From assembly GCA_035546615.1 (NCBI GenBank), contig DASZWM010000003.1, forward strand, positions 92,902 through 156,901: a stretch of 64,000 nucleotides of DNA, given 5' to 3'. Position numbers and translations under genes: made by a program. The notes under the pieces were generated by a model that did no database searches, was not told the DNA's origin, and worked only from the letters and a program-made list of their open reading frames with translations. Within the stretch, counting starts at the first letter, position 1. The number at the start of each line of letters is the position of its first letter. Below are positions 43,238-61,785 of the stretch, piece after piece. The DNA comes from Minisyncoccota bacterium (GTDB lineage Bacteria; Patescibacteriota; Minisyncoccia; Phycocordibacterales; SBAW01).

Positions 43238-43243
43238 GGGTGT

Positions 43244-44338: not shown

Positions 44339-44343
44339 ATAGT

Positions 44344-44691: not shown

Positions 44692-44726
44692 ATTGGTCTT
44701 TTAGATCTTTCCTCGCAAGCTCGGAA

Positions 44727-45260: not shown

Positions 45261-45291
45261 ACAGGTTTTATGGAAGACGGGTTACACATGA

Positions 45292-45678: not shown

Positions 45679-45686
45679 ACGATTGA

Positions 45687-45872: not shown

Positions 45873-46002
45873 TGTGTAATTAGGTCCCCCGGACCGGCCG
45901 GGGGTACTCCCCTTACCTAGGAAGTTATGATTCTGCCGGTTTGCCTCGCCTTGCGACTAAGCGGCACCTAACAGAAAAAAGGAGCCCTGATGGGCTCGGC
46001 AA

Positions 46003-46031
46003 AATATACGCGATATGGGCATATAAGTCAA
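46003..46031 (-). promoter_or_regulatory. Sigma-70-type promoter TTGACT-N17-TATATT driving rpsN and downstream genes
   Basis: minus-sense ggatTTGACTtatatgcccatatcgcgTATATTttgcc, ~125 nt upstream of rpsN ATG; leader contains two hairpins (45981-45998, 45886-45904). Confidence 0.5.
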
Positions 46032-46101
46032 ATCCGGCTTGACAGGGAGCCGAGATATAGAAAACTGAGGGTAGTTGGTCGGCCCGTTGGAGGAAACTGC
46101 C

Positions 46102-46359
46102 ATGGTTGCACTGGCGCCTCCTGAACGGAGGCCGTTGTCGAAAATACGCGTATTCTTCGCCCTGATCGGATTAATAGGCATGACGCTTGTTATCCTCGGA
46201 GGCGCGGCGCTGGCGTTAGACGGCTTGGGAATGTTCTTCATCCACCATCTTCCAGCCGATAGGGCGGCCGGCATCACCGGGATGGGCATCATCCTTGTGG
46301 CAATGGCGATGGGGGTGTTCAACCTTCTGCGAAGAAAAATCAAAGGGCCCGCGGGATGA
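46102..46359 (+). CDS. Small (86 aa) two-TM membrane protein inserted antisense between rpsN and rplE
   Basis: GGAGGA SD 6 nt before ATG 46102; MVALAPPERRPLSKIRVFFALIGLIGMTLVILGGAALAL...; ends at terminator. Confidence 0.4.
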   Translation: MVALAPPERRPLSKIRVFFALIGLIGMTLVILGGAALALDGLGMFFIHHLPADRAAGITGMGIILVAMAMGVFNLLRRKIKGPAG

Positions 46360-46388
46360 CCATCTCCCGCGGGCCCTTCGTGATTTTA
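46344..46388. terminator. Bidirectional rho-independent terminator immediately after rplE
   Basis: agggcccgcggg-atgaccatctc-ccgcgggccct with T-runs on both sides. Confidence 0.6.
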
Positions 46389-46392
46389 AAAA

Positions 46393-46929
46393 CTATTTCT
46401 TGAATGGGAAGCCGAGGTGTGTGAGATATGCTTTCGCTTCGTCCTTGTTCTTGGCGCCCGTCACAACCGTGACCGACATGCCGAAGACATCCTTAAGCTC
46501 CTCGTCGGCGGTCTCCGGGAATACCGTGTTCTCCTTGATACCAAGCGTGTAGTTGCCCATCTCGTCGATAGCGGAAGTCTCGATACCCTTGAAGTCCTTG
46601 GTGCGAGGAAGCGCGATGTGCACGAGGCGGTTGAGGAAATCCTCAGCGCGCTTGCCGCGCATCGTTACCTGGTAGCCTATCTTGTCGCCCACGCGGGTCT
46701 TGAAGGTGGCGATGGCCTTCTTGGCGGCGCGGGGAGCCGGCTTCTGTCCGGTTATCTTCTCCAGCCGATTGGCGATGAGCTCGATCTTGTTCTTATCTTT
46801 GGTTGAGCCGGTACCAACGGAAATAACTACCTTCTCCACCTTGGGGGTCTGCATGACATTCACCCACCCAAGAGTGCCCTTGAGCTCCGCGAATGCCGTC
46901 TTCTGCTGTTCTTGAATGAGTTTAGCCAT
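46393..46929 (-). CDS. rplE: 50S ribosomal protein L5
   Basis: typical L5 sequence. Confidence 0.9.
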   Translation of the reverse strand: MAKLIQEQQKTAFAELKGTLGWVNVMQTPKVEKVVISVGTGSTKDKNKIELIANRLEKITGQKPAPRAAKKAIATFKTRVGDKIGYQVTMRGKRAEDFLNRLVHIALPRTKDFKGIETSAIDEMGNYTLGIKENTVFPETADEELKDVFGMSVTVVTGAKNKDEAKAYLTHLGFPFKK

Positions 46930-46937
46930 GGTGGTGG

Positions 46938-47029
46938 ATTATTATCTAGCGAGCGAGAGAAATGAAAACTTGTTTTCATTTCCGAGCGAGCGACGATAAT
47001 ATAAATTTTTCATAAAATTTCTATTTCTT
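46938..47029 (-). repeat. 92-nt AT-rich intercistronic element (copy 1) between rplX stop and rplE start; contains perfect 11-bp hairpin
   Basis: 88/92 nt identical to 49598-49689; gaaatgaaaac-tt-gttttcatttc stem flanked by direct AGCGAGCGA repeats. Confidence 0.6.
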
Positions 47030-47248
47030 CGGACCGACGTTGCTGGCGTGTATCGGGAAATGCTTGTCGATTATCTGGCCCTTCTGCCCTTCGCGGCGGG
47101 GCTTCTGGTGCTTCTTGCGCATGCCCACACCCTCAACGAGCACGAGGCCAAGCTTCGGGAAGGTCTTTACGACCCTGCCGCTCTTGCCCTTCTCGTTGCC
47201 CGAGAGGACCGTTACCGTATCGCCTTTTTTTACATGCATGGTATTCAT
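47021..47248 (-). CDS. rplX: 50S ribosomal protein L24
   Basis: KOW motif MHVKKGDTVTVLSGNEKGKSGRV. Confidence 0.85.
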   Translation of the reverse strand: MNTMHVKKGDTVTVLSGNEKGKSGRVVKTFPKLGLVLVEGVGMRKKHQKPRREGQKGQIIDKHFPIHASNVGPKK

Positions 47249-47265
47249 ACGTTTCTTTTTTATTG

Positions 47266-47289
47266 GTGTAAAAATTAAAATTTTTACAC
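47266..47289 (-). promoter_or_regulatory. AT-rich hairpin spanning rplN stop codon, 18 nt upstream of rplX start
   Basis: ggtgtaaaaa-ttaaaa-tttttacacc (9-bp stem). Confidence 0.35.
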
Positions 47290-47664
47290 AACCTCCGGAG
47301 CGCGGGAAATGATGGTCTGGTAGCCGAGCTCCTGGAGCTCGCGCGGGATAGGGCCGAAGATGCGGCCTGCCTTAGGCTCCTTCTTGTCCTTGCCGGCGGT
47401 GTCCAGTATGACGACCGCGTTCTCGTCGAAGCGGATGTACGAGCCGTCCTTGCGGCGCATGGCCTTCTTCTGGCGCACGACGACGGCGCGCAGGATGTCC
47501 TTCTTCTTAACGGCTTTGCGCGGCTCGGCCGACTGCACCGAAATGACCACGAGCTCGCCGATTTCCGCGTAGCGCTTCTTGGAACCGCCAAGCACTTTGA
47601 AAACGCGGCCGATCTTGGCGCCGGAATTATCTGCAACAACAACGAGTGAGCGGTCTTGTATCAT
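47284..47664 (-). CDS. rplN: 50S ribosomal protein L14
   Basis: typical L14 sequence. Confidence 0.9.
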   Translation of the reverse strand: MIQDRSLVVVADNSGAKIGRVFKVLGGSKKRYAEIGELVVISVQSAEPRKAVKKKDILRAVVVRQKKAMRRKDGSYIRFDENAVVILDTAGKDKKEPKAGRIFGPIPRELQELGYQTIISRAPEVV

Positions 47665-47665
47665 A

Positions 47666-47914
47666 TTAGTTTTCGAACACTATCTCGAAGGACTTGAGCT
47701 TCGACATAGGGCGGCACGAGCGGATGGTAACCGCCTCCCCTTCCTGCGCGCGGTTGCCCGGATTGTGGGCGTGGTAGCGCTTGGTCGACTTCATGTACTT
47801 CTTGTACTTCGGATGCTTCACGTAGCGGGATACGGCAACTACCGCCGTGTCCTGCATTTTAGCCGAGACTACGGTGCCGCGAAGCGTCTTCTTATGTACG
47901 GTTTTGGTTTCCAT
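47666..47914 (-). CDS. rpsQ: 30S ribosomal protein S17
   Basis: typical S17 sequence. Confidence 0.85.
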   Translation of the reverse strand: METKTVHKKTLRGTVVSAKMQDTAVVAVSRYVKHPKYKKYMKSTKRYHAHNPGNRAQEGEAVTIRSCRPMSKLKSFEIVFEN

Positions 47915-47915
47915 A

Positions 47916-48119
47916 TTATTTCTTTGCCGCGGCCTTCTGCGCGGCGAGCTCTGTCATGGCGCGCGCGACGTCTTTGCGGAGCGTGCGGGCGAGCTTTACA
48001 TTGCGATTTTTACTACCGGAAGCGGAAAAGCGCAAGCCGCGGAGCTCTTCGCGCTTATCGGCAACGATCTTGAGAAGATCGTCCTGGTTATGGTTCTTGA
48101 GCGAGTTCTTCTTGGTCAT
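47916..48119 (-). CDS. rpmC: 50S ribosomal protein L29
   Basis: 67-aa protein starting MTKKNSLKNHNQDDLLKIVADKREELRGLRF; ORF-track N-terminal extension rejected (overlaps rplP). Confidence 0.75.
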   Translation of the reverse strand: MTKKNSLKNHNQDDLLKIVADKREELRGLRFSASGSKNRNVKLARTLRKDVARAMTELAAQKAAAKK

Positions 48120-48120
48120 A

Positions 48121-48540
48121 TTAGTGTCTGGTGACCACCTTGGTCTTGAGCGGCAGCTTCTTCCCTGCCTTCTCGAGCGTCTCCTTGGCGAGGGGTCCGG
48201 CAACGCCGTCCACTTCGAACAGTACGCGGCCCGGCCATACTTCCACCTCGTAGCCGACCGGATCGCCCTTACCCTTGCCGAGCTTCACTTCCGGCGGCTT
48301 CTGGGTGAACGGCTTGTCGGGGAATACGCGCAGCCACATCTTGCCGGTCTTGCCGAGGCTGCGGACCACCACTTTGCGGGCGCTCTCGAGCTGGTTGGAG
48401 CGCAGGCGGGCGTGGGTCATCGCCTTGAGGCCGTGGGAACCAAAGGCAACGGTAATGCCGCGGGTAGCGACTTTGCCCTTCTTGGCATTGTGGCGCATCG
48501 TGTGCCACTTCCTGAATTTTACTTTTTTGGGGAATAACAT
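48121..48540 (-). CDS. rplP: 50S ribosomal protein L16
   Basis: typical L16 sequence. Confidence 0.9.
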   Translation of the reverse strand: MLFPKKVKFRKWHTMRHNAKKGKVATRGITVAFGSHGLKAMTHARLRSNQLESARKVVVRSLGKTGKMWLRVFPDKPFTQKPPEVKLGKGKGDPVGYEVEVWPGRVLFEVDGVAGPLAKETLEKAGKKLPLKTKVVTRH

Positions 48541-48567
48541 GGTGTTGATTCAATCCTCGGCACTTTT

Positions 48568-49248
48568 TTATTTGTCTTTGCCGCCATCCTTGCCGGTGGC
48601 TGCAAAGACCTCGCCGCGGTATATCCAAACCTTGACGCCGATGACGCCGAGCGGAAGGTTCGCGCGCTCCTTGGCATAGTCGATATCCGAACGGAACGTC
48701 TGGAGCGGGATGCGGCCCTTCTTGAGCTCCTCGGTGCGGGACATGGAGCCGCCGCCGAGCATGCCGGAAACGCCGATGCGCACTCCCTTCACGTCGCGGT
48801 TGGCCATCACCTTCTCGATGGTCTGCTTGAGCACGCGGCGGAACGGCATGCGCTTCTCGAGGCTCTCAACCACCATGTATGCGACTATTGCCGCGCTGGA
48901 CTCAGGGCTGCGAATTTCCTCGATATCGAGCTTGATCTCAGGGACCTGGAGCTTGCGCTTCTTAAGGAAGGCGACGATCTTGTCCTTGAGCTTGGTCGAG
49001 CCCTCGCCGGAGCGGCCGATGATGATGCCCGGGCGCGAGGTCTTGATGATAACGCGCAGCTGCTTTTCGTTGCGCTCTATCTCCAGGGCGCCGATGTACA
49101 TGCCGCGAAGCTCCTTCTGCAAAAATTCGCGCAGGAGGATATCGGCCTTGAGGTACTGCTGGTACTTGGCGCCGGTAGCGAACCAGCGGTGACGCCAGTC
49201 ACGCAGTATTCCGAGCCTATGGGCAAATGGGTTTACGACTTTAGACAT
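48568..49248 (-). CDS. rpsC: 30S ribosomal protein S3
   Basis: KH domain, typical S3. Confidence 0.9.
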   Translation of the reverse strand: MSKVVNPFAHRLGILRDWRHRWFATGAKYQQYLKADILLREFLQKELRGMYIGALEIERNEKQLRVIIKTSRPGIIIGRSGEGSTKLKDKIVAFLKKRKLQVPEIKLDIEEIRSPESSAAIVAYMVVESLEKRMPFRRVLKQTIEKVMANRDVKGVRIGVSGMLGGGSMSRTEELKKGRIPLQTFRSDIDYAKERANLPLGVIGVKVWIYRGEVFAATGKDGGKDK

Positions 49249-49252
49249 ATAG

Positions 49253-49594
49253 TTATTGGGCTTTCGCGGCCTTGCGGGAAAGGGCGAGGGTGATATGACT
49301 GGACTTCTTGCGTATCGGGGACGAGCTGCCGCGGGCGCGGGGCATGGAGCGCTTGAAGACGATGCCGCCGTTCACCTGGATGCTTGAAATGTAGAGCTCG
49401 GAGGCCGCAACATCCTTGCTGTTTGCAATAGCGGACTTAACCAGCTTTGCCATCGGGTCGGAGCCGCGCTTCGGGAGCGTGGCAAGAAGCGCGAGCGCGC
49501 GCTCGACGGACTTGCCGCGGATGAGGTCGGCAATGAGGCGCACCTTGCGGGGCGACTGGCGGTAGTTCTTGAGTGATGCGGTTGCGTCTGACAT
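49253..49594 (-). CDS. rplV: 50S ribosomal protein L22
   Basis: typical L22 sequence. Confidence 0.9.
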   Translation of the reverse strand: MSDATASLKNYRQSPRKVRLIADLIRGKSVERALALLATLPKRGSDPMAKLVKSAIANSKDVAASELYISSIQVNGGIVFKRSMPRARGSSSPIRKKSSHITLALSRKAAKAQ

Positions 49595-49597
49595 ATA

Positions 49598-49689
49598 ATT
49601 ATTATCTAGCGAGTGAGAGAAATGAAAACTTGTTTTCTTTTCCGAGCGAGCGACGATAATATAAATTATTCATATAATTTCTATTTCTT
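49598..49689 (-). repeat. 92-nt AT-rich intercistronic element (copy 2) between rpsS stop and rplV start
   Basis: 96% identical to 46938-47029; begins at KK* stop of upstream gene, ends 3 nt before ATG. Confidence 0.6.
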
Positions 49690-50052
49690 GCCTGCCGGAG
49701 CGCCAGCCTTGCCGCCCGCCGCATCAGCCGCAGCCTTGGCCGCGCCCGCTGCCGCGATCTCGGCCTCCTTGGCCTTGGTCTCCATCTCCTTCTGCATCTT
49801 GCCGCCGTGGCGCTGGAACTTCTTCGTGGGAGAGAACTCGCCCAGGCGGTGCCCGACCATGTCCTCGCTCACGAGCACCTCAACGTGCGTCTTGCCGTTG
49901 TGGACGCCGAACTTGAAGCCGACCATTTCGGGGGCTATCTGGCTGCGGCGCGCCCACGTCTTAATAAGCTCAGATCCTTGAGCTTTTTTGCCCTCAATCT
50001 TCTTGAGGAGCTTTTCGTCTACGTATGGTCCTTTTTTGAGGCTGCGTGCCAT
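49681..50052 (-). CDS. rpsS: 30S ribosomal protein S19 with Ala/Lys-rich C-terminal extension
   Basis: S19 core [13 protein letters not shown]...HNGKTHVEV; ~35-aa tail. Confidence 0.85.
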
Positions 50053-50122
50053 ATTTCCAAAATTAAAGCCCCTGTCCGTTTGAGCAGAGAGCGCTCAAAC
50101 CTTGCGACACGGGAGTACAGGG

Positions 50123-50151
50123 ATAGTACAGGATAAGGCTGGGATAGTCAA
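50123..50151 (-). promoter_or_regulatory. Sigma-70-type promoter TTGACT-N17-TACTAT for rpsS operon segment
   Basis: minus-sense aatTTGACTatcccagccttatcctgTACTATccc; leader hairpin gtttgagc-gctctct-gctcaaac (50079-50101). Confidence 0.5.
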
Positions 50152-50196
50152 ATTGTGCTATAGTCGGCCGCGGATTCCCCAACCTAGGAGGTTGCT

Positions 50197-50763
50197 GTGA
50201 TAGCGTCAGCCAATATCGTACAGGCGGAGTACTTTCACGTGGACGGAGGGAGGACTCATTCGCTCGATGTTCTGCGTAATCAAATACGGGAGCGTGTGAA
50301 AGACAATCTCGAGCTAGCCCTTCGGACGGGACAGGAAGTCTCGCCCGGCATCAAGACATGCGTCCGGTTCTGCGATAATGACGAATCGGTTACGGCACGC
50401 GTGCGAGAAGCCGAGCAGCTCGAGAAAAAATATGGCGCGACGCTCGATGCCCTTGGCCGGCCTCGGAACGGTCGCCTTATGCGCTGGTGGTATCGGCGCC
50501 AGCTGCGGAATATCGGCGACAGTAAGAGGCGCGCGAAAGAGACCGCCATAGAACATTCCATATCGGCGCTTTTGCGCGCGATCAAGGCCAAGGAAAAGAT
50601 CGCTGTCGAGAAAAACGACCATTCGTATCGCTTTCTCAACGACAACGAATCGCTCGAACTTGCTGAAAGGGTGAGCGCCGCGAAGAGCGGGTGGATATTT
50701 GTCTTCAAGCCAAATAAAGACCTGTTGGCGGACAGAAACACTATAGTAACCCGTATCATGTAA
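50197..50763 (+). CDS. Hypothetical 188-aa protein inserted antisense between rpsS and rplB (GTG start)
   Basis: AGGAGG SD 6 nt before GTG; extended -10 TGcTATAGT at 50156-50164; own strong terminator. Confidence 0.5.
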   Translation: MIASANIVQAEYFHVDGGRTHSLDVLRNQIRERVKDNLELALRTGQEVSPGIKTCVRFCDNDESVTARVREAEQLEKKYGATLDALGRPRNGRLMRWWYRRQLRNIGDSKRRAKETAIEHSISALLRAIKAKEKIAVEKNDHSYRFLNDNESLELAERVSAAKSGWIFVFKPNKDLLADRNTIVTRIM

Positions 50764-50770
50764 CGAAAAT

Positions 50771-50810
50771 CGCCCCGGCATTTTGCCGGGGCGTTCTCTT
50801 TTTTGTGTTT
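50771..50810. terminator. Rho-independent terminator (bidirectional) after 188-aa gene and after rplB
   Basis: cgccccggc-attt-tgccggggcg + ttctcttttttgtgtttgattttt. Confidence 0.65.
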
Positions 50811-50815
50811 GATTT

Positions 50816-51664
50816 TTACTGCTGTGCTCCGCGCTTGCCGACTTTGCGGCGGGAAACAATGAGGTAGTTGGAGTACTTCTTCGGGCGGCGAGACTTCTGG
50901 CCCTTGCCGGTGGGCTTGCCCCACATGGACTTCGCGCGACGCGTACCGCGGCCCTGGCGGCCTTCGCCTCCGCCGTACGGGTGGTCAACCGGGTTCATTG
51001 CAGTGCCGCGAACGGTCGGGCGGATGCCGAGCCAGCGGCTGCGGCCTGCTTTGCCGAGGTTCATGAGCTTGTTCTCAGGGTTGGAAACTTCGCCGAGGGT
51101 TGCCCAGCAGGTCTCAAGCACCTTGCGCACCTCCGAAGACGGCATCTTAAGGTCTACATAGCCGCCGTCGCGCGCGATAACCTCAATGTGCGTGCCTGCC
51201 GCGCGGCCAAGCTTGGCGCCGTTGCCCGGCTTTATCTCGACGTTGTATACGAATGCGCCGATCGGAACATTCTTAAGCGGCATACGATTGCCCGGAGTGG
51301 CTGCAGCCTCAGTCGCGGTCTCGATAACGTCCCCTACCCGGGCGGTCTGCGGGAGAAGCGCGTAGCGGCGCTCGCCGTCGCGGTACACCAGCACGCCGAT
51401 GAAGCCAGAACGGTTCGGATCATACTCGACGGTCTCTACCTTGGCCGGAACCTGCTTGTCGTAGAAAAAGTCCACCTCGCGGAACATGCGCTTGTGGCCG
51501 CCGCCCTTGTGGCGCACCGAAATGCGGCCCGCGTTGTCGCGGCCGGAACCGCGGCGCCCGCCCTTCGTAAGCGCCTTGTGCGGCTCGTTGGTTGTGAGCT
51601 TGCCGCGGAAGGTTACCGTGGTCATGCCGCGGCGCGATTTAGTATATGGTCGGTAGTGTTTCAT
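50816..51664 (-). CDS. rplB: 50S ribosomal protein L2
   Basis: typical L2 sequence. Confidence 0.9.
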   Translation of the reverse strand: MKHYRPYTKSRRGMTTVTFRGKLTTNEPHKALTKGGRRGSGRDNAGRISVRHKGGGHKRMFREVDFFYDKQVPAKVETVEYDPNRSGFIGVLVYRDGERRYALLPQTARVGDVIETATEAAATPGNRMPLKNVPIGAFVYNVEIKPGNGAKLGRAAGTHIEVIARDGGYVDLKMPSSEVRKVLETCWATLGEVSNPENKLMNLGKAGRSRWLGIRPTVRGTAMNPVDHPYGGGEGRQGRGTRRAKSMWGKPTGKGQKSRRPKKYSNYLIVSRRKVGKRGAQQ

Positions 51665-51695
51665 AAAATCTCTTTTTTAATTGGTCTAAATAAAT

Positions 51696-51983
51696 TTAGA
51701 CCAGCTCGATGGTCTCCCCCTTCTTGAGGAACACGTATGCCTTCTTTCCTGCGCTAGTTTTGCCCTTGCGGTTAGTACGGCGGGTGAGCACTGCCTTGCG
51801 GGGAACAGCGACAATGCGTACGAAGCGAGGAGTGACCTTGTAGACGGTCTGCACCGCATCCGCAATCTCCTTCTTGTTGGCATCCATCGCCACGTTGAAG
51901 ACATAGACGCTATGCTCAGAAAGGTATGCGCCTTTTTCCGTGATGCGGGGCGAGAGCAGTATGTGGGTGTGAGAGCGTTTCAT
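51696..51983 (-). CDS. rplW: 50S ribosomal protein L23
   Basis: typical L23 sequence. Confidence 0.85.
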   Translation of the reverse strand: MKRSHTHILLSPRITEKGAYLSEHSVYVFNVAMDANKKEIADAVQTVYKVTPRFVRIVAVPRKAVLTRRTNRKGKTSAGKKAYVFLKKGETIELV

Positions 51984-51984
51984 A

Positions 51985-52704
51985 TTATTTCTTTACCACC
52001 TTCTTAGCGCCCAAGGTCTCCATAGCGGCGGCCGGCTCTGCAATGATGAGGTACTTGCTGGAGAGGACCGATACCGGGTTCAGGTTGCGCACCTCCACCA
52101 TCTCGACATTACCGAAGTTCTGGAAGCTCTTCTGCGTTGCAACATGCACGCGCGGAATAGCGATAAGCGCGGCGTTCTTTGCCTTCGAAAGGCCGGAGAA
52201 GGTCTTGCCGAGCGCTGCAAGGAGTATCTTGGCCTGTGCGGTCTTCGGGCTGCTCAACTCAAGCGAGTCTATAAAGAGCACCTCCCCGTCCTTGTACTTG
52301 CGGGAAAGGGTCACGAGGAGCGCCTTCTGGCGGGCCTGGCGGTTTATCTTCTGGGCGTAGATCTTCTCGTTGCGAGGACCGTGGGTAACGCCGCCGCCCT
52401 TCCATATAGGAGAGCGCGAGGAGCCATGGCGGGCGCGGCCGGTGCCCTTTTGCTTCCAAGGCTTCTTGCCGCCGCCGCGAACCTCGCCCCGGTCTTTAGT
52501 ATGAGCGACCGGGCCGCGAGCATTGGCCTGCATCGCGGTAACCACCTGGTGCACGAGGTCGGCATTCCAAGGAAGTCCGAAGATGTTCTCCGGAAGCATG
52601 AAGGTGCCGGCCGACTTGCCGTCCTTGTTGAAGACGGAAGCCTCCATCTTGTTGCCGGCCGGAGCGGCCTTCTCTACTTTCTTTGTTTTGGTAGTGGTAG
52701 CCAT
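51985..52704 (-). CDS. rplD: 50S ribosomal protein L4
   Basis: typical L4 sequence. Confidence 0.9.
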   Translation of the reverse strand: MATTTKTKKVEKAAPAGNKMEASVFNKDGKSAGTFMLPENIFGLPWNADLVHQVVTAMQANARGPVAHTKDRGEVRGGGKKPWKQKGTGRARHGSSRSPIWKGGGVTHGPRNEKIYAQKINRQARQKALLVTLSRKYKDGEVLFIDSLELSSPKTAQAKILLAALGKTFSGLSKAKNAALIAIPRVHVATQKSFQNFGNVEMVEVRNLNPVSVLSSKYLIIAEPAAAMETLGAKKVVKK

Positions 52705-52709
52705 AAAAA

Positions 52710-53342
52710 TTATGATGTTGCAGCAGTGCCGCGGATCTCAACTACCGTACCGCGGCGGCCGGGAACGGCGCCTGCGAGAACGAGCTCGTTGGTCTCGGGA
52801 AGTATCTGGAGTATCGGAAGGTTGCGGACGGTTACGCGGTCAGAACCCATGCGGCCCGCCATGCGCATGCCCTTGGCAACGCGGCCTCCCGCGCGGCCGC
52901 CTGAGCCGCCTATGGAGCCCGGTGCGCGCTCGGAGTGCTTCTGGCCGTGGGAGCGAGGACCGCCGTGGAAGCCGTGGCGCTTAACGACGCCCTGGAAGCC
53001 GCGGCCCTTGGAAATAGCCGAAACGGTTACCTTCTCCCCTACTGCGAATGCGGAGAGGTCTACGACTGCGCCGACCTCAACATCTGCCGCGCCGCCCTTG
53101 AGATTGATCTCGCGGAAATGGCGGAGCGCTTTGCCCTTCGTGTGGCCCATCTGCGCCTTGCTGACGTGCTTGGGGGTCGTCTCGACGCCGCCGATCTGGA
53201 CTGCGGAATAGCCGTCCTTCTCCACCGTCTTTATCTGGGTTACCAGGTTAGGAGCGGCGTTTATGACGGTAGCGGCAAAAGCCTGTCCCTCTTCGGTATA
53301 GACAGTAGTCATTTTGCCCTTTGTTCCAAGGATGAATTTCAT
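52710..53342 (-). CDS. rplC: 50S ribosomal protein L3
   Basis: typical L3 sequence. Confidence 0.9.
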   Translation of the reverse strand: MKFILGTKGKMTTVYTEEGQAFAATVINAAPNLVTQIKTVEKDGYSAVQIGGVETTPKHVSKAQMGHTKGKALRHFREINLKGGAADVEVGAVVDLSAFAVGEKVTVSAISKGRGFQGVVKRHGFHGGPRSHGQKHSERAPGSIGGSGGRAGGRVAKGMRMAGRMGSDRVTVRNLPILQILPETNELVLAGAVPGRRGTVVEIRGTAATS

Positions 53343-53359
53343 AACTTAGCGTAGTGAGT

Positions 53360-53383
53360 GAGAAGAAAATGTATTTTCTTCTC
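53360..53383 (-). promoter_or_regulatory. Leader hairpin (11-bp stem) 17 nt upstream of rplC start
   Basis: gagaagaaaat-gt-attttcttctc flanked by AGTGAGTGAG / GGAGCGAC. Confidence 0.4.
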
Positions 53384-53493
53384 CGAACGGAGCGACAGTT
53401 ATATCGGGGGATTTTCCCGCTATGTTGTCTGTAGGTCCCTCTGCTTGGCCCAAGGCCTGGGACGCGGATCAACTCTTATGTAGAGTCCCAAAG

Positions 53494-53522
53494 AATATAC
53501 ATCAGAGCCTTAATTTATGCAA
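53494..53522 (-). promoter_or_regulatory. Sigma-70-type promoter TTGCAT-N17-TATATT for rplC-rplD-rplW-rplB
   Basis: minus-sense TTGCATaaattaaggctctgatgTATATTcttt at edge of AT-rich island. Confidence 0.55.
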
Positions 53523-53544
53523 ATAGTGATGATAAACTTAGTAT

Positions 53545-53961: not shown

Positions 53962-54210
53962 AAAATAAGGGCAAGAATAAAGCCTCATCAAAAATGATGA
54001 GGCGGATGGGGAGGGAGAGGAGGGTGGGGAAAAAAGAGAAGAAAGAACTAGATGGAATGATGGAGTGGGAGAGCGTGTAAAAACAGAGGCTCAGGAAGGA
54101 TGCGAGAGTACCGTAAGCGAGCGCGCTATATGGTTTCCCATCGCAGACCTCCGCTGTCAGTCAGTCCGTTTATGAGAACCGGGCACGACGCAAAAGGTTA
54201 CATACACGAA

Positions 54211-54234
54211 AAGGCCTCCGCGCGGAGGCCTTTT
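54211..54234. terminator. Palindromic GC hairpin with flanking A/T runs (possible bidirectional terminator, end of candidate sRNA)
   Basis: gaaaaggcctccg-cgcggaggccttttcg. Confidence 0.4.
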
Positions 54235-54420
54235 CGTTCCAATTTCTTTGCTCAGCTTGCAGAGTGTGCCCTGTGGGCTGCAAACGGAACAAAAAACCCG
54301 ACCTATAGTTCGGGCGAAATTAACGCCTATGTGTCGCGACTAAAGGACAAAACCGTACTGAGCGTCTTGTTCTAAGTATATGAATTGCTCATCTTTAGTC
54401 AATAAAATTTTCCACAAAAA

Positions 54421-54448
54421 CAAAAACTCCCGCCGAAGCGGGAGTTTT
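54421..54448 (-). terminator. Rho-independent terminator directly downstream of rpsJ
   Basis: minus-sense aaaaactcccgc-ttcg-gcgggagtttttgtttttgtgg. Confidence 0.6.
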
Positions 54449-54492
54449 TCGAATGCCATTCTTTTTGATTTGTAAAAATGTCCTAGCTAACG

Positions 54493-54870
54493 CTATGCCA
54501 TTTTTACGTCGATAGTGACACCGGAAGGAAGTGAGAGGTTCGTGAGAGCCTCGATGACCTTGGCAGACGGATCGAGGATGTCGATGACGCGCTTATGGAT
54601 GCGCATCTCGAACTGCTCGCGCGCGTCCTTGTAGACGAAGGTCGAGCGGTTGACCGTGTACTTCTTTATCTCGGTCGGCAGCGGTATCGGGCCTGCGACC
54701 TTCGCGTCGTAGCGAAGCGCGGTGTCGAGTATCTGCTTGATGCTCGCATCAAGCACCTTGTGCTCGTACGCGCGGACCTTGATGCGAAGGCGCTGGACTG
54801 CGGCCGGGGCGGCTGCGCGGCGTGCGCGCTTAGGAGCTGCTTTCTTCTCTGCTATTGGTTCGGTAGCCAT
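54493..54870 (-). CDS. rpsJ: 30S ribosomal protein S10 (with ~25-aa basic N-terminal extension)
   Basis: [25 protein letters not shown]... Confidence 0.85.
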
Positions 54871-54881
54871 ACTTTTTTATT

Positions 54882-54902
54882 GGCAGACAACGAGTTGTCT
54901 GC
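54882..54902 (-). promoter_or_regulatory. Leader hairpin 12 nt upstream of rpsJ start
   Basis: gcagacaac-tcg-ttgtctgc followed by AAUAAAAAAGUAUG. Confidence 0.35.
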
Positions 54903-55013
54903 TTTGAGTCTAGTTCTCCTGTTCTCCAGGTAACCTATACTCGGTTAGCTTACGCTTACAGATAATGGGAACGCTCATCACTATGGCCTAGATTACGAAT
55001 AATTGCAACACGA

Positions 55014-55038
55014 AAAAGTCCCGCCTACGCGGGACTTT
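55014..55038 (-). terminator. Rho-independent terminator after tuf
   Basis: minus-sense aaaaagtcccgc-gtag-gcgggactttttcg. Confidence 0.65.
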
Positions 55039-55071
55039 TTCAGCAACGTCTTTTTGATTTAAAATTGTTGC

Positions 55072-56268
55072 TTAAGCAACAATTTTCGTCACAACGCCTG
55101 CACCGACGGTCTTGCCGCCCTCGCGAACCGCGAAGCGGGTCTGCGCCTCGAGCGCAACCGGCGCCGTGAGCTTGACCTTGAAGGTGATGGTGTCGCCCGG
55201 CATGACCATTTCTACGCCTGCCGGAAGGGTTACCTCGCCGGTAACGTCGGTCGTGCGGATGTAGAACTGGGGCTTGTAGCCGGTGAAGAACGGCGTGTGG
55301 CGGCCGCCCTCCTCCTTGTTGAGGACGTATACCTCGCCCTCGAACTCGGTGTGGGGGGTAACGGAGCCGGGCTTCGAAAGCACCTGGCCGCGGTGGATGT
55401 CATCCTTGGCGGTACCGCGCAGGAGAAGGCCCGCGTTGTCGCCTGCCTGGCCCTGGTCGAGCTGCTTGTTGAACATCTCGATGCCGGTAATGGTTGTCTT
55501 TGCGGTCGGAACGAGGCCGACGATCTCGACTTCCTCGCCTACCTTGATGACGCCGCGCTCGATGCGGCCGGTAACCACCGTGCCGCGTCCTTCTATAGAG
55601 AAGATGTCTTCAACCGGCATAAGGAACGGCTTGTCGAGCTCGCGGGTCGGCATCGGGATGTAGGTGTCGAGCGTGTTTACGAGCTCAAGCACCTTCTTCG
55701 CCCACTCGTCGTCGAGGGTCTTTGCTTCAAGAGCCTTGAGGCCCGAGCCGCGGATGACCGGAGAGTCGGTGTAGCCCTGCTTCTTGAGGAGGTCCTTCAC
55801 TTCCTCTTCCACGAGGTCTACGAGGTCCTTGTCGTCGACCATGTCCACCTTGTTGAGGAAGACGATGATCTTCGGCACGCCGACCTGCTTGGCGAGGAGG
55901 ATGTGCTCGCGTGTCTGGGGCATTGCGCCGTCAGTCGCGGCAACCACGAGGATGGCGCCGTCCATTTGGGCGGCTCCGGTGATCATGTTCTTGATGTAGT
56001 CCGCGTGGCCCGGAGCGTCGATGTGGGCGTAGTGGCGGTTCGGCGTCTCGTACTCCGAGTGGTGGAGCGCGATGGTAATGCCGCGGGCCTTTTCCTCGGG
56101 AGCGTTGTCGATGCCGTCGACGGCCTCGACGCGCGCGCCGTAGCCCTGGCCCTTAGCGAGGTCGAGCACGTGGAGAATCGACGCGGTAAGCGTCGTCTTT
56201 CCGTGGTCGACGTGACCGATGGTGCCGACGTTTACGTGCGGCTTTGTCCTGTCAAATGAATCTGCCAT
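55072..56268 (-). CDS. tuf: Elongation factor Tu
   Basis: [19 protein letters not shown] motifs; 398 aa. Confidence 0.95.
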
Positions 56269-56355
56269 AAATAAAATACCTAGTGAATAATACTTTTAAG
56301 ACCTTGTAACGCACACAGTGAGCACAGAAAAGCACGCCCTATCGCTTTAGAGCCA

Positions 56356-56383
56356 ATAGTAGCAGAAGCTGAAAAACAGTCAA
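56356..56383 (-). promoter_or_regulatory. Sigma-70-type promoter TTGACT-N16-TACTAT upstream of tuf
   Basis: minus-sense ggTTGACTgtttttcagcttctgcTACTATtgg, ~88-nt leader. Confidence 0.5.
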
Positions 56384-56405
56384 CCCGCCGCGCCTAGGCG
56401 CAGGG

Positions 56406-57404: not shown

Positions 57405-57540
57405 GGTGCTTATAAATGCTATCCGCTAATTAATAAAGGGCACGGAAGAGGGCACGAGCTTTCGCTCGTGCCCTGATAGCCATAACTATAGCTCTTCCGT
57501 CATGCTCCACAAGGAGCTTGTGTGGATAACCAAAAAAGCC

Positions 57541-59691
57541 TTATTTGCGGCCTGCAACGATAGTTGCCGCGACGTTGGGAGGCACAACCTCGTAATGGTC
57601 GAATTCCATGGTGAAGCTGGCGCGGCCTTCGGTCATAGAGCGAAGCGCGGTGGTATAGCCGAACATTTCAGAAAGCGGCACCTTTGCCTTGACGGCGCGG
57701 GCGAGTCCGCGCTCTTCCATGCCTTCTATCTGTCCGCGCTTGGAGTTAAGGGAACCGGTGATGTCACCCATGAACTTCTCAGGCACCACGACCTCCACTT
57801 TCATAATAGGCTCAAGGAGAACCGGCTTTGCGGCCTTGGCCGCTTCCTGGAAGCCCATCGATGCCGCAATCTTAAAGGCGATTTCGGAGGAGTCGACGTC
57901 GTGGTAGGAGCCGTCGTAGAGCTCGCAGGAGATGTCCACCATCTTGAAGCCGGCCACGATGCCGCGCTCCATTGCCTCGCGCACGCCGTCCTCCACCGGA
58001 CCGATGAATTCGTTCGGAACCACGCCTCCCTTGATGTTATTGATGAATTCGAAATGCTCCTCGCGCGTGATGTTCTTGGAAACCTTCTTGTCGGGATCAA
58101 GCGGCTCAAGCGGCTTCAGGCGCAGGCGCACATGGCCGTACTGGCCCTTGCCGCCGGTCTGCTTGATGTATTTGCCTTCCGCCTCCGATTCCTTCTGGAT
58201 GGTCTCGCGGTATGCCACCTGCGGCTTGCCGACGTTGGCCTCCACGCCGAACTCGCGCTTCATGCGGTCGACAAGGATCTCGAGGTGCAGCTCTCCCATG
58301 CCGGAGATGAGCGTCTCCATGGTCTCGCTGTCGGTCGATACTTTAAATGTCGGGTCCTCGTCGGCGAGCTTCTTCATCGCCATGCCCATCTTTTCCTGGT
58401 CGGCCTTGGTCTTCGGCTCGATGCGCAGGGAGATAACCGGCTCCGGGAATTTGATCTGCTCGAGCTGTATGGGATTTGCCTCGTCGCACAGGGTATGCGA
58501 GGTGCGTGTGTCCTTAAGGCCAACCGCTGCCGCTATTTCTCCCGCGTATACCTTCTTCACTTCCTCGCGCTCGTTTGCCTGGAGGCGCACGATGCGGCCG
58601 AGTCGCTCCTTGGTGCCGGTCGTCGAGTTATACAAATACGAGCCCGCCTCGATGGTGCCGGAGTATACGCGGAAGAAGGTCAGCTGGCCCACGAACGGGT
58701 CGGCCTGGAGCTTGAATGCTAGGGCGGTAAAAGGCTCGTCATCGCTTGCCTGGCGCTGTATAGCATCGCCGGTGCGAGGATCGATGCCGGTAATAGGCGG
58801 CATGTCCACGGGCGAGGGCAGGTAGTCGACGACGGCGTCGAGCACGAGCTGCACGCCCTTGTTCTTGAGGGCGGAACCGGTATAGACCGGGAATATCTTG
58901 TTCGCGATAACCGCTTTGCGGAGCGTTGCTTTGAGCTGCTCCAGGGTCGGCTCTTTGCCGTCGAGGTATGCGGTCATGAGCGCGTCGTCATGCTCCACCA
59001 CGGCCTCGATAAGCTGGGCGCGGTACTTTGCCGCATCAGCCTTGAGGTTCTCGGGAACCTCCATCTCAACGACGTTCTCGCCCATCGAGCCTTCGAACTT
59101 GTAGGCCTTCATGGAAAGGAGATCAACGACGCCTTCGAAGTTGCCCTCTTCGCCAATCGGAAGCTGCATGCGCACCGCATGCTTGGTGAGGCGGTCAAGG
59201 ATGGACTGGAACGACTTTTCAAAAGAGGCGCCGGTGCGGTCGAGCTTGTTGATGAAGCAGACGCGCGGGACATTGGCCTCGTCGGCGTAGCGCCAGTTGG
59301 TCTCCGACTGCGGTTCCACGCCGGCAACGCCGTCGAACACGACGACCGCACCGTCGAGCACCCGCATGGAGCGCTTCACCTCGACGGTGAAGTCGATGTG
59401 TCCGGGGGTGTCGATGATATTGAAACGGAACTTCTTGGCCGGATCCTTCTTGTCGGGTTCGAGGGAAGGGCTCCAGAAGCAGGTGATGGCGGCGGCGGTG
59501 ATGGTGATGCCGCGCTCGCGCTCCTGTTCCATCCAGTCGGTCGTGGTCTCGCCCTCGTGCACCTCCCCTATCTTGTGCTGGGAGCCGGTGTAATACAGAA
59601 CGCGCTCAGACGTGGTCGTCTTGCCCGCATCGATATGCGCGATGATGCCGAAGTTGCGAACCTTCTCAAGTGGATAGTCTCTTCCTGCCAT
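57541..59691 (-). CDS. fusA: Elongation factor G
   Basis: [18 protein letters not shown], 716 aa. Confidence 0.9.
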
Positions 59692-59815
59692 ATATGGTTA
59701 GTAATTCAAAAAAATAGGCGCCCGAGGCGTACCTACAAGATACTAAAAACTGGCGGAAATGCAAACGGCGCCGAAGGCTTGTGGGCCTCCTGCGCCTGTT
59801 TGCTGCACCTCTCTC

Positions 59816-60466
59816 TTATTTCCAGAACGGCCAGAACTTGAAGTGGAAGTTCGAGAACCAGCTGAACCAGCCGTAGTGATTGCCGGGGGTAGTGGTGGCA
59901 TGCCAATCGTGGCCGTGGTCATCCCCGTCATGAGGATTCGAGTCGTCCTTGTCGCTCACGACTATGGTCGCCTTCCCTACCGTCTTTCCGGCCCAGATGC
60001 ACTGAACATTGTCGGGGCAAGCGTCCTGTATGAGCAGGGCGGTGTACGTGCCCGCCTTCGCGTACGTATGGGTGAGCGAGCACTGGGCCGGGCTCGACTG
60101 CAAGCATTCGCCGTACTTAGACCTAGAACCATCGCCAAAGTCTACCGTGTAGCGGTTAGGCTCCATGAGCTTGGAATAGAAGTCGACCTTGAGCGGCGCA
60201 TCGCCCCACTTCGGAGAAGCCGAGAAAGTATATGCGGCAGGCGCGGGATCGGCCGTTCCCGGACACTTGAACTCGCACTTGGGGCCCGAGCGTCCCACCC
60301 AGGAACCGTCTGGGCACTGCATCGCGTCCATTGTGCATACGGTCATGCCTGCGCCGGCAGAAGCGCCTATCGTATTCGCCTGAAGCACAAGCGGGGAAAG
60401 CACAAGGAGCGTGAACATTCCGAAGCCGGCTGAGGTAAGAGCGAAAGAAGTCTTAATCGTTTTCAT
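59816..60466 (-). CDS. Secreted PKD-like domain protein with His/Trp-rich C-terminal tail, inserted between rpsG and fusA
   Basis: Signal peptide; KVDFYSKLMEPNRYTVDFGDGS...HTYAKAGTYTALL PKD-like; tail HDGDDHGHDWH...WFSWFSNFHFKFWPFWK. Confidence 0.55.
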   Translation of the reverse strand: MKTIKTSFALTSAGFGMFTLLVLSPLVLQANTIGASAGAGMTVCTMDAMQCPDGSWVGRSGPKCEFKCPGTADPAPAAYTFSASPKWGDAPLKVDFYSKLMEPNRYTVDFGDGSRSKYGECLQSSPAQCSLTHTYAKAGTYTALLIQDACPDNVQCIWAGKTVGKATIVVSDKDDSNPHDGDDHGHDWHATTTPGNHYGWFSWFSNFHFKFWPFWK

Positions 60467-60547
60467 AGAGTTAAAAGTTAGCTGCTAAAAATTTAAATCG
60501 GGTACATAAGCGGAAAGCCCGCCTACTAGTATAGACGAAATAGAAAA

Positions 60548-60566
60548 GAGGCCCTTACCGGGCCTG
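60548..60566 (-). terminator. Candidate intrinsic terminator downstream of 25-aa mini-ORF
   Basis: minus-sense caggcccggtaagggcctc followed by uuuucuauuucg. Confidence 0.4.
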
Positions 60567-60577
60567 CTTCCTCCCTT

Positions 60578-60655
60578 CTATAAGATGTGGAACAGATATA
60601 AAAGGATAATCACGCCGACCGGGACCCCCAGCAGCCACAATAGTATTCCTTTCAT
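60578..60655 (-). CDS. Candidate 25-aa hydrophobic mini-protein (MKGILLWLLGVPVGVIILLYLFHIL)
   Basis: Short ORF between rpsG and PKD gene followed by terminator hairpin; no SD; below ORF-track cutoff. Confidence 0.2.
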   Translation of the reverse strand: MKGILLWLLGVPVGVIILLYLFHIL

Positions 60656-60727
60656 ACGTTCATGAAACACTACCGTACCTGAAGGAGAAATGAACATCTA
60701 CTCCCGCTTCCAAATTAGAATTTTGAA

Positions 60728-60884
60728 ATGCAATGCGAGGCGCGAAGCAAAAATCCGGAAGTATTAGAAGAGGCGCTTTATTTTGGATGCAGTGCGCGAA
60801 GCGAAGGCAAAAATTCTTGAGCAATACAAGCGTATTGTGAGAGAATTTTTGCCGCACGTCCTCCAAGTGCAATGCGCAAAAATA
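60728..60884. repeat. Three imperfect direct repeats (TGCARTGCG..GCGAAGC..AAAAAT) in rpsG-PKD intergenic region
   Basis: aaatgcaatgcgaggcgcgaagcaaaaat / ggatgcagtgcgcgaagcgaaggcaaaaat / agtgcaatgcgcaaaaat; contain GCGAAGC mini-hairpin motif. Confidence 0.4.
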
Positions 60885-60894
60885 AACCGCCGAA

Positions 60895-61365
60895 TTACCA
60901 GGCGAAGTGGGCGAACGCTTTGTTGGCCTCAGCCATGCGCAGCGTATCGTCGCGCTTCTTGATGGCGCTTCCTTCGTTGTTTGCGGCCGCCATGATTTCG
61001 GTAGCGAGCTTCTCGGCCATCGGCTTGCCCTTGCCGCCGCGAGCCGCAATAAGTATCCAGCGGAACGCCAGCGCCATCTTGCGCTCGGGGCGAACCTCGC
61101 GCGGCACCTGGTAGTTGGCGCCGCCGACGCGGCGGGAGCGGATCTCCATGGCCGGGCCTACGTTGCGGATAGCGGTCTCGAAGACTTCAAGCGGCATGTC
61201 GGTCTTCGCCTTCTCCTTGATTATTTCAAGCGCGTCGTATACCACCTTGCGGGCGGTAGATTTCTTGCCGTCCCACATGACCGAGTTGATGAATTTCTCC
61301 ACACGCACGGAGTTGTACTTCATGTCGGGACCAACGATATTCCTGTTTTTTACCGGACGTCGCAT
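60895..61365 (-). CDS. rpsG: 30S ribosomal protein S7
   Basis: typical S7 sequence. Confidence 0.9.
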
Positions 61366-61374
61366 GATTGAGAA

Positions 61375-61785
61375 TTACTTTTTAGGACGTTTAACGCCGT
61401 AACGGGAGCGGGACACATTGCGCTTCTCCACGCCGGCGGCGTCGAGCTTGCCGCGCACCACCTGATAGCGGACATTGATATCCTTCACACGGCCCGCGCG
61501 AACGACGACGACGGAGTGCTCCTGAAGGTTGTGGCCCTCGCCCGGGATGTATGCGGTTATTTCCTGGCCGTTGGTCAGGCGCACGCGGGCGATCTTGCGG
61601 ATAGCGGAGTTCGGCTTGCGAGGGGTCGTGGTGGTCACTTTGGTGCAGACGCCGCGCTTGAACGGGGATGGGTAGAAGATCGGGCGGTTCTTAAGCACGT
61701 TAAAGCCGCGGGCGAGGGCCGGCGACTTGGACTTGCTCTTCATTTGTTTGCGTCCCTTGCGGACGAGTTGGGATATGCGGGCCAT
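61375..61785 (-). CDS. rpsL: 30S ribosomal protein S12
   Basis: typical S12 ([16 protein letters not shown]). Confidence 0.9.

Follow-up and report, generated by a model that had tools for sequence, protein, structure and literature searches.

The str-S10-spc ribosomal gene cluster of a Minisyncoccota bacterium is interrupted at five junctions and probably divided into some seven transcription units

In E. coli, rpsL-rpsG-fusA-tufA, rpsJ to rpsQ, and rplN to secY are one operon each, with tight spacing and one main promoter. The str-S10-spc series that they form is a textbook example of a rearrangement-resistant gene order across Bacteria, and the 16-protein marker set by which lineages of the Candidate Phyla Radiation (CPR) are placed is based on it. 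How is such a series organized when genes of other kinds stand inside its operons? We addressed this question with a stretch of 64,000 nucleotides (nt) from a Minisyncoccota bacterium, referred to here as the window (assembly GCA_035546615.1, contig DASZWM010000003.1, positions 92,902 to 156,901 of the forward strand; positions below count from its first letter). A preliminary description, made by a model from the letters alone, had reported that the cluster is broken at five junctions and re-promoted behind the breaks. We found that the same junctions are broken in related genomes and that the blocks between them begin with conserved promoters and leaders. Our results are most consistent with a cluster that is divided into small transcription units.

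The str-S10-spc series of the window is complete and collinear on the reverse strand, from rpsL (61375-61785) to secY (41966-43237). Open reading frames (ORFs) were identified by NCBIfam and Pfam scans. Every gene of the universal order, rpsL-rpsG-fusA-tuf-rpsJ-rplC-rplD-rplW-rplB-rpsS-…-rplE-rpsN-rpsH-…-secY, gave an NCBIfam equivalog match. In gene content and order the series is like the canonical operons, with the difference that L30 is lacking. No L30 gene lies between rpsE and rplO in the cluster, and its absence is a trait of CPR bacteria (PMC9297842). The tight spacing of the canonical operons is not kept. Five spacers of 520-1272 bp, amounting to 0.5-1.3 kb of extra DNA each, hold one or two non-ribosomal ORFs apiece, and the flanking gene order is undisturbed. 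The genes and the five interrupted junctions lie where the preliminary description had placed them. The predicted units and the inserted genes are as follows (GC3, GC content at third codon positions; TM, transmembrane):

60895..61785, reverse strand: predicted unit 1, rpsL (61375-61785) and rpsG (60895-61365); NCBIfam TIGR00981 and TIGR01029
59816..60466, reverse strand: insert 1, in the rpsG/fusA junction beside a 428-bp spacer; 216-aa protein with an N-terminal signal/TM segment (residues 8-28) and a PKD domain (Pfam PKD_4, 28 bits, cut-off 27); GC3 0.73
57541..59691, reverse strand: predicted unit 2, fusA (EF-G); TIGR00484, 1066 bits
56406..57404, reverse strand: insert 2, in the fusA/tuf junction; 332-aa secreted protein with a peptidoglycan (PG)-binding domain (PG_binding_1, Pfam PF01471, E = 8e-9); signal/TM residues 5-37
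55072..56268, reverse strand: predicted unit 3, tuf (EF-Tu); NF000766, 678 bits
54422..54870, reverse strand: predicted unit 4, rpsJ (54493-54870) including its terminator; NF001861
53545..53961, forward strand (antisense): insert 3, in the rpsJ/rplC junction (1150 bp, GC down to 0.36); 138-aa protein with several hydrophobic (TM) segments; GC 0.34, GC3 0.30
50771..53342, reverse strand: predicted unit 5, rplC-rplD-rplW-rplB (50816-53342) including its terminator; NCBIfam
50197..50763, forward strand (antisense): insert 4, in the rplB/rpsS junction (763 bp); 188-aa soluble orphan with a GTG start 7 nt after AGGAGG; converges on rplB and diverges from rpsS
46341..50052, reverse strand: predicted unit 6, rpsS-rplV-rpsC-rplP-rpmC-rpsQ-rplN-rplX-rplE (46393-50052) including its terminator; NCBIfam
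46102..46359, forward strand (antisense): insert 5, in the rplE/rpsN junction (520 bp); 85-aa protein (from its ATG, 8 nt after GGAGG) with two TM segments; converges on rplE and diverges from rpsN
40023..45872, reverse strand: predicted unit 7, rpsN (45687-45872)-rpsH-rplF-rplR-rpsE-rplO-secY-gmk-adk-map, the end of the cluster; NCBIfam, Pfam and ORF map

The first account of the inserts was right in part. It spoke of repeated antisense insertion, which describes three of the five; the PKD and PG-binding genes lie on the ribosomal strand. It also had all five encode secreted or membrane proteins. Four of them do have signal or TM segments, and the 188-aa protein has no hydrophobic segment.

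We found that the five break points recur in relatives. The comparison set consisted of 80 loci around rplB, one genome per species from the 80 closest species, whose assignment to Paceibacterota is approximate. Cluster genes were placed in these loci by tblastn, and a junction was counted as expanded if the gap exceeded 200 bp:

rpsG/fusA: expanded in 10/16 loci; median gap 604 bp
fusA/tuf: expanded in 26/28 loci; median gap 1748 bp
rpsJ/rplC: expanded in 32/63 loci (28/33 close, 4/30 distant); median gap 276 bp
rplB/rpsS: expanded in 53/65 loci; median gap 869 bp, maximum 9683 bp
rplE/rpsN: expanded in 32/44 loci; median gap 597 bp
tuf/rpsJ: expanded in 6/60 loci; median gap 63 bp
17 other junctions: expanded in 0-1 loci each

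Because the same five junctions expand across 80 related loci, the pattern is not due to chance. The rplB/rpsS break is the oldest and most general. The suggestion of a lineage-specific reorganization thus survives the synteny comparison for a trait shared across Paceibacterota, and fails for a peculiarity of one genome, the breaks being old and recurrent in the class. The layout was also found in a 197-kb contig from the Joint Genome Institute (JGI), which served as an independent comparison. Its order is PKD gene, fusA, PG-binding gene, tuf, rpsJ, a gap, rplC to rplB, an antisense gene of 191 aa, rpsS to rplE, an antisense gene of 101 aa, and rpsN.

The cargo of the junctions is unlike even between the closest genomes. 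It is mostly unique (144 ORFs of 100 aa or more are singletons) and occurs in both orientations, and most rplB/rpsS cargo of distant relatives points the same way as the ribosomal genes. In relatives, 118 cargo ORFs matched 47 Pfam families in all, and no integrase or transposase is among the 25 most frequent of the families listed. Recognizable families are PG_binding_1, PKD, PaaX_M and assorted enzymes, with PG-binding/PKD proteins the commonest cargo of fusA/tuf. The cargo of distant relatives includes rplJ-rplL, a membrane protein with a mechanosensitive-channel domain, diacylglycerol kinase and pyrimidine genes.

We found predicted promoters in front of the blocks and predicted terminators behind four of them. 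A consensus scan of the region gave 19 promoter-like sites, compared with 6.7 +/- 2.2 in shuffled sequence. A stricter scan of the full 64-kb window gave 8 sites, 4 of which were junction promoters. The sites at block ends, read on the reverse strand, are:

61855-61860: possible rpsL -10 box, TATAGT, with no clear -35 box; two leader hairpins follow it upstream of rpsL
59764-59759 and 59742-59737: fusA promoter candidate, TTGCAT, 16-nt spacer, TATCTT
56383-56356: tuf promoter, TTGACT, 16-nt spacer, TACTAT (consensus scan and alignment of 25 relatives)
55013-55040: tuf terminator, -25 kcal/mol, kept in relatives
55008-55003 and 54985-54980: rpsJ promoter candidate, TTGCAA, 17-nt spacer, CATAGT
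54422-54449: rpsJ terminator, -19.8 kcal/mol
53523-53494: rplC promoter, TTTGCA, 18-nt spacer, TATATT (consensus scan)
50771-50793: rplB terminator, bidirectional, -26.3 kcal/mol
50151-50123: rpsS promoter, TTGACT, 17-nt spacer, TACTAT (consensus scan)
46341-46380: rplE terminator, bidirectional, -36.3 kcal/mol
46031-46003: rpsN promoter, TTGACT, 17-nt spacer, TATATT (consensus scan)

The four promoters before rplC, rpsS, rpsN and tuf, and the terminators, agree by consensus scan and folding energy with those read at the outset. The terminators after tuf, rpsJ, rplB and rplE are of the canonical hairpin-plus-U type. No convincing promoter had been recognized before rpsJ or fusA, and here the reading changes: both have candidates, whose -10 boxes align with those of relatives. 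The possibility that rpsJ is monocistronic fits these predictions, as two strong terminators bracket rpsJ and it appears to have a conserved promoter and leader of its own.

The promoters are conserved in relatives. Alignments of block starts gave the consensus TTGACT or TTGCRY, a 16-18-nt spacer and TAnnnT. Upstream of rpsS, promoter-like sites were present in 26/41 close and 22/24 distant loci (the distant ones scoring at least 9/12). The internal genes rplV, rpsC, rplN, rpsH and rplF had such sites upstream in only 0-3 loci. The conservation of the promoters, together with that of the leaders described below, indicates that they are real features and not chance consensus matches, and it bears out the claim of a promoter in front of the downstream blocks. 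The rpsS promoter is kept in two compact relatives (L035 and L033) whose rplB/rpsS gaps are 73 and 93 bp and hold no cargo. This suggests that the internal promoters came first and the cargo later. At expanded junctions of at least 150 bp, a terminator stands right after the upstream gene in approximately 40-55% of relatives.

We found that the promoters are followed by conserved leaders. In blastn comparisons, the 100-200 nt located 5' of rpsN, rpsS, rplC, rpsJ and tuf could be aligned across relatives, and the cargo could not. Alignments of 8-41 loci showed a conserved promoter and leader before fusA, tuf, rpsJ, rplC, rpsS and rpsN. In the window these are, all on the reverse strand:

59692..59764: fusA promoter and short leader, a CGCC/GGCG hairpin and then U7
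56269..56383: tuf promoter and conserved leader
54871-54979: structured rpsJ leader, including the hairpin 54881-54900
53343-53493: structured rplC leader, its 3' end carrying one copy of a dispersed repeat of ~65 nt (53341-53405)
50053-50121: structured rpsS leader
45873-46002: structured, multi-helix rpsN leader of about 130 nt

Four of the leaders are supported by covariation. The rpsS leader had double changes in 11/17 pairs, with 97.6% of cells paired, compared to 1-2 pairs in slid controls. Its covariance model matched solely upstream of rpsS, in 17 genomes that are exactly its training sequences; the remaining genomes have a shorter hairpin-plus-U rpsS leader. The rpsJ leader has an almost invariant core, GTAAGCTAAYCGRGTATAGGTTAC…GAGAACTAGAC, kept in 21 loci, with compensatory changes in 7/11 pairs. 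In about 40 loci the rplC promoter (cTTGCATAA…gTATAGT) and leader (GGGACTCT…TAGAGTTGATCCRCGTCCC…GGGACCAATAGACAAC) are kept, and compensatory changes affect 6/10 pairs. About 19 loci keep the rpsN promoter together with the multi-helix leader and its 5' hairpin plus UUUUUUCUG (compensatory changes in 6/15 pairs). The fusA leader is simpler. Its -10 box and hairpin/U-run are kept in 7 relatives, in which the letters of the stem vary and the pairing is held. No leader matched an Rfam family, either at the gathering score or at E <= 5. Sub-threshold Rfam matches at the junctions (rsmX, istR, Phe/His leader) were terminator-like and were dismissed as chance.

Conserved, covariation-supported structure in the 5' untranslated region is one mark of ribosomal-protein leader RNAs as a functional class, and the rpsS, rpsJ, rplC and rpsN leaders have it. 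A second mark would be binding by a protein of the operon or imitation of its rRNA site; the window and the compared loci contain no rRNA gene. We regard these four as candidate regulatory RNAs. In the leaders of rpsN, fusA and tuf, and in the short form of the rpsS leader, a hairpin and then a U-rich tract come right after the -10 box. Such an element could be an attenuator, or it could be a 5' stabilizing hairpin with an A/U-rich standby site for ribosomes behind it. The standby option fits the fact that the ribosomal genes lack a Shine-Dalgarno motif while the inserted 188- and 85-aa genes have one. The motif is absent from all starts of ribosomal and elongation-factor genes between 41388 and 61785, where contexts are A/U-rich, e.g., AAT-ATG. 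We also compared the rpsN leader by eye with helix 21 of 16S rRNA, where S8 binds. The 5' strand (UUAGUC) is similar and the 3' strand is not, and mimicry of the S8 site is unproven.

Four of the inserted genes have counterparts at the same junctions in relatives. A PKD_4 gene is upstream of fusA in the JGI relative as well. Homologues of the PG-binding gene occupy the same fusA/tuf gap in that contig and in several of the 80 loci (L002, L006, L007, L014 and others). Both genes have native GC3 (0.72-0.73) and signal-like N-termini. In the JGI contig, an orthologue of the 188-aa protein (191 aa, 66% identity) is encoded at this protein's junction with matching orientation, and L034 has a homologue there as well (30% identity). 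For the 85-aa protein there is a homologue at the same junction and orientation in L006, with 47% identity by tblastn and 50% over the 86 codons aligned for the ratio of nonsynonymous to synonymous substitution rates (dN/dS). The 101-aa antisense gene of the JGI relative is at the same position. The dN/dS was 0.17 for the 188-aa ORF and 0.28 for the 85-aa ORF against its L006 counterpart. These two antisense inserts are under purifying selection.

The 138-aa gene is the sole compositionally foreign insert, with a GC3 of 0.30 compared to about 0.78 in neighboring genes. The two closest relatives (L001 and L002) lack it, and a search of 1.8 billion representatives gave just 2 distant homologues of its product, one of them at an unrelated locus in another CPR-like genome. 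The other inserts have a GC3 of 0.64-0.73, higher than GC at the first and second codon positions (GC1 and GC2), a periodicity of the coding type. The GC and codon analysis that had been proposed as a check on foreign origin thus points to the AT-rich 138-aa gene only; the others are native in composition and some are syntenic in relatives.

Searches of Pfam, NCBIfam and PHROGs gave no family match for the 138-, 188- and 85-aa ORFs or for a 25-aa ORF in the rpsG/PKD spacer (below). The same databases showed no mobile-element family, integrase or transposase in the spacers and inserts of the window. Among phage families, none matched an insert except that the PG-binding gene had PG-binding-domain matches to endolysins and weak ones to virion structural proteins. 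Flanking repeats were short and at chance level. A 13-nt direct repeat, CTTAGTATATGAA, at 53537 and 54372 was considered as a target-site duplication and rejected, since by estimate a 1.25-kb stretch would contain about 0.5 such pairs through chance alone. A 91-aa ORF on the forward strand (54100-54375) is not a gene: GC is flat over its codon positions, relatives have no homologues, and it overlaps a conserved non-coding element.

The 188-aa ORF is identical to the NCBI hypothetical protein VHD55_02000 from a Paceibacterota metagenome-assembled genome (MAG). The annotation of VHD55_02000 (155 aa) probably starts too late, because the 33 additional N-terminal residues that the GTG start gives are kept in the 66%-identical JGI orthologue and AGGAGG precedes this start. 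With an alignment of 3 sequences, AlphaFold2 modelled the 188-aa protein at a mean pLDDT of 38, and the model was unusable.

Taken together, these observations make it probable that an ancestor of the lineage partitioned the cluster into about seven mini-operons, and that the spacers then became permissive insertion sites with turning-over cargo throughout the lineage. The transcription units would be rpsL-rpsG; fusA; tuf; rpsJ; rplC-rplD-rplW-rplB; rpsS to rplE; and rpsN to secY-gmk-adk-map. Each would start with its own sigma-70-type promoter (TTGACT or TTGCAY, 16-18-nt spacer, TAnnnT) and a conserved 5' leader, and four would close with strong intrinsic terminators. We propose that the spacers tolerate insertions because expression of a unit no longer needs read-through from upstream. 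The spacers between units would then be class-wide hot spots for gain, loss and exchange of accessory genes, which may be neutral or even advantageous. The three antisense inserts are arranged alike. Each runs towards the upstream unit, with which it shares a bidirectional terminator, and away from the downstream unit, the promoters standing back to back. Wedged in this way between terminator and promoter, they may also help to insulate the units. In place of the feedback that L4, S8 and S7 exert on entire operons in E. coli, the rpsJ, rplC, rpsS and rpsN leaders would probably provide such control for their individual units.

Several points weigh against this partition. All promoters, terminators and unit boundaries are predictions from sequence, and the -10 boxes of rpsJ (CATAGT) and fusA (TATCTT) are weak matches. 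The hairpin/U-run after several promoters resembles a terminator, and if it functions as one, the output of those promoters is uncertain. The sample was the 80 closest species, which fixes the age and the limits of the trait only roughly. No U-tract terminator was found after rpsG, the PKD gene or the PG-binding gene, and there is a weak one right after fusA. Because U-tract terminators are absent or weak there, rpsL to tuf may stay partly co-transcribed, the internal promoters only adding to expression. The initial claim that co-transcription was lost is a reading of sequence throughout, and it is weakened over these genes.

The same gap in terminators supports the possibility that the operons are functionally intact. 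Read-through transcripts would then span the supercluster, the junction promoters would be secondary, as in E. coli and B. subtilis, and the cargo would be carried as passengers with or against the mRNA. The ribosomal orientation of the PKD and PG-binding genes agrees with this, as does the mostly co-oriented rplB/rpsS cargo of distant relatives, and a canonical terminator is absent at expanded junctions in about half of relatives. We nevertheless consider intact operons unlikely. The predicted U-tract terminators after tuf, rpsJ, rplB and rplE (-20 to -36 kcal/mol) and the internal promoters argue against one transcript per operon, the convergent antisense genes at three junctions share those terminators, and a conserved promoter and long structured leader for each block would be needless under read-through. 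Recent foreign or mobile insertions specific to this genome (horizontally acquired islets) are what the composition of the 138-aa gene, its absence from the two closest relatives and its near lack of homologues would indicate. We judge it highly improbable that such islets explain the locus: the other inserts are native in composition, the PG-binding, PKD, 188-aa and 85-aa genes are at the same junctions in relatives, the break points are identical class-wide, flanking repeats are unconvincing, and the 25 most frequent cargo families listed include no integrase or transposase.

The breaks might also be artefacts, either chimeras of assembly or binning or inserted ORFs that are not genes. The window does come from a MAG, and three inserted ORFs have no family match. 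Exact-sequence look-up of the L2 protein of the window and of NCBI protein P0001 found no independent assembly of the same species on record. Chimerism, which had been named as a possible source of the junctions, is very unlikely given that an independent JGI assembly repeats the five-insert layout and that tens of independent MAGs have the junction leaders and promoters in common. The dN/dS of the two antisense ORFs, the Pfam domains in two inserts and the codon-position GC of the native inserts are those of genuine genes. An artefact of either kind is barely conceivable.

A bolder version of the partition goes beyond this evidence, and we offer it tentatively, as a doubtful possibility. Paceibacteria may have swapped a three-operon architecture with L4, S8 and S7 feedback for approximately seven mini-operons controlled by leader RNAs of at least four undescribed structured families (rpsJ, rplC, rpsS and rpsN). 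The spacers, beside the strongest promoters of the cell, might then be preferred landing and expression sites for fast-evolving PG-binding/PKD surface proteins and small membrane proteins of an episymbiotic lifestyle.

The organization resembles, in part, several that are known. Compared with the canonical operons, it has five breaks inside the operons, promoters and leaders block by block, and terminators at the ends of four blocks. In the disconnection of operon clusters, small insertions of unrelated genes are the usual first step (Brandis 2021, PMC8046335; PMC6735719), and the window likewise has a few unrelated genes inserted between collinear flanks. The published examples are mostly between operons, in Gammaproteobacteria and Bacilli, and comprise one insertion inside rpoBC and six integrations of transposable elements (PMC8046335). 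Here, in contrast, the sites are inside E. coli-type operons, the same five sites are used class-wide, the new promoters and leaders are conserved, and transposable elements do not appear among the 25 most frequent cargo families listed. Although they lie inside operons as defined in E. coli, the sites coincide with conserved promoters and leaders and so are probably boundaries of transcription units.

Archaea provide a second comparison. There, uS10 is apart from uL3-uL4-uL23-uL2, and the latter cluster is often apart from uS19-uL22-uS3… (PMC10833476). The rpsJ/rplC and rplB/rpsS breaks delimit exactly those modules. The blocks in the window nevertheless adjoin one another in the collinear bacterial order, their proteins are of bacterial type, and the uL5/uS14 break is no general archaeal boundary. 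The resemblance is limited to module boundaries and does not imply common descent.

The leaders are like autoregulatory ribosomal-protein leaders, such as the E. coli S10 leader under L4 and the spc site under S8 (Fu et al. 2013, PMC3616713), in being conserved structured regions before ribosomal-protein operons. They differ from known leader RNAs in lacking an Rfam match and in their first genes (rplC, rpsS and rpsN). The L4-controlled attenuator of E. coli S10 includes a terminator-like hairpin, as do some leaders here.

We found no description of this organization in CPR bacteria in the literature. We rate it as real, lineage-wide and, as far as checked, unreported, and as a variant of the known erosion of operon clusters rather than a new kind of system. 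That a CPR class tolerates and re-uses five breaks inside operons suggests that selection protects modules smaller than the E. coli operons. The locus also yields four candidate regulatory RNAs in a group whose gene regulation is hardly understood at all. Such loci may be handled wrongly by annotators and marker-gene pipelines built on contiguity, and the variable spacers could serve as strain-level markers.

The spacers contain non-coding elements in addition to the inserted genes, all on the reverse strand:

60467..60894: rpsG/PKD spacer, GC about 0.45
54206..54402: window-specific stretch after the rpsJ terminator, with a strong promoter-like site, TTGACT, 16-nt spacer, TATACT (54402-54375; 10/12 matches)
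53975..54206: conserved non-coding element of ~230 nt, a candidate small RNA, with its own intrinsic terminator (53982-54003)

The rpsG/PKD spacer contains a hydrophobic ORF of 25 aa (60578-60655, reverse strand; MKGILLWLLGVPVGVIILLYLFHIL) with its own terminator-like hairpin (60549-60565, -17.1 kcal/mol). Two imperfect tandem copies of a ~57-nt unit lie just upstream of this ORF, at 60733-60830.

In the stretch 54206-54402, two terminator hairpins (54315-54296 and 54233-54206) lie within about 170 nt downstream of the promoter-like site. The stretch is absent from L001 and unconserved in L002, and it may encode a very short transcript or be a remnant. The candidate small RNA next to it has a structured 5' half, an invariant ACACGCTCTCCCACTCCATC, and an extended, unpaired C/U-rich stretch whose CCUCC repeats give it an anti-Shine-Dalgarno-like look. 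It was seen only in the window, in L001 (2725-2950) and in L002 (7806-8016), with a minimum free energy z-score of -3.07. It had no Rfam match, and an nhmmer profile from the three sequences found no more copies in the 80 loci.

The dispersed repeat of ~65 nt, …GTCGCTCCGCTCG-hairpin GAAAAGAAAA/TTTTCTTTTC-CACTCRCTCCGCTAGATAATAAT, has copies at 53341-53405, 49601-49663, 46940-47003 and 1387-1453 (reverse strand) and at 33246-33306 (forward strand). It lies directly 5' of the start codons of rplC, rplV, rplE and gatC, and the copies there account for the 86-91-bp gaps at rpsS/rplV and rplX/rplE. Copies are scattered in L012, L010 and others, and a loop of the rplC leader holds a related module in L009 and L023. 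Candidate roles for the repeat are those of a translation-initiation module and a processing site, or it may be a miniature mobile element.

At its two ends, too, the cluster is cut (37203-41957 and 61897-63951). Upstream of rpsL, a 684-aa glycine-rich protein with no recognizable signal or TM segment is encoded in the place of rpoBC. At the other end gmk sits between secY and adk, and downstream of map there is a 928-aa TraG/VirD4-like ATPase where the alpha operon (infA…rpoA) would be. L24 (rplX, 47021-47248, reverse strand) is 75 aa long and matches a bacterial model of 104 positions from 2 to 70, the C-terminal third being absent; it is likewise 75 aa in the JGI relative.

Two features elsewhere in the window were noted. 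A perfect consensus promoter (TTGACA, 18-nt spacer, TATAAT; 12/12) at 30856-30885 on the forward strand lies about 160 nt 5' of the tmRNA gene (31047-31421, forward strand). ARAGORN identified a tRNA-Ile with anticodon TAT (UAU) at 24622-24695 on the forward strand. A UAU tRNA is an uncommon bacterial way to read AUA, which is usually read by a lysidine-modified CAU tRNA.

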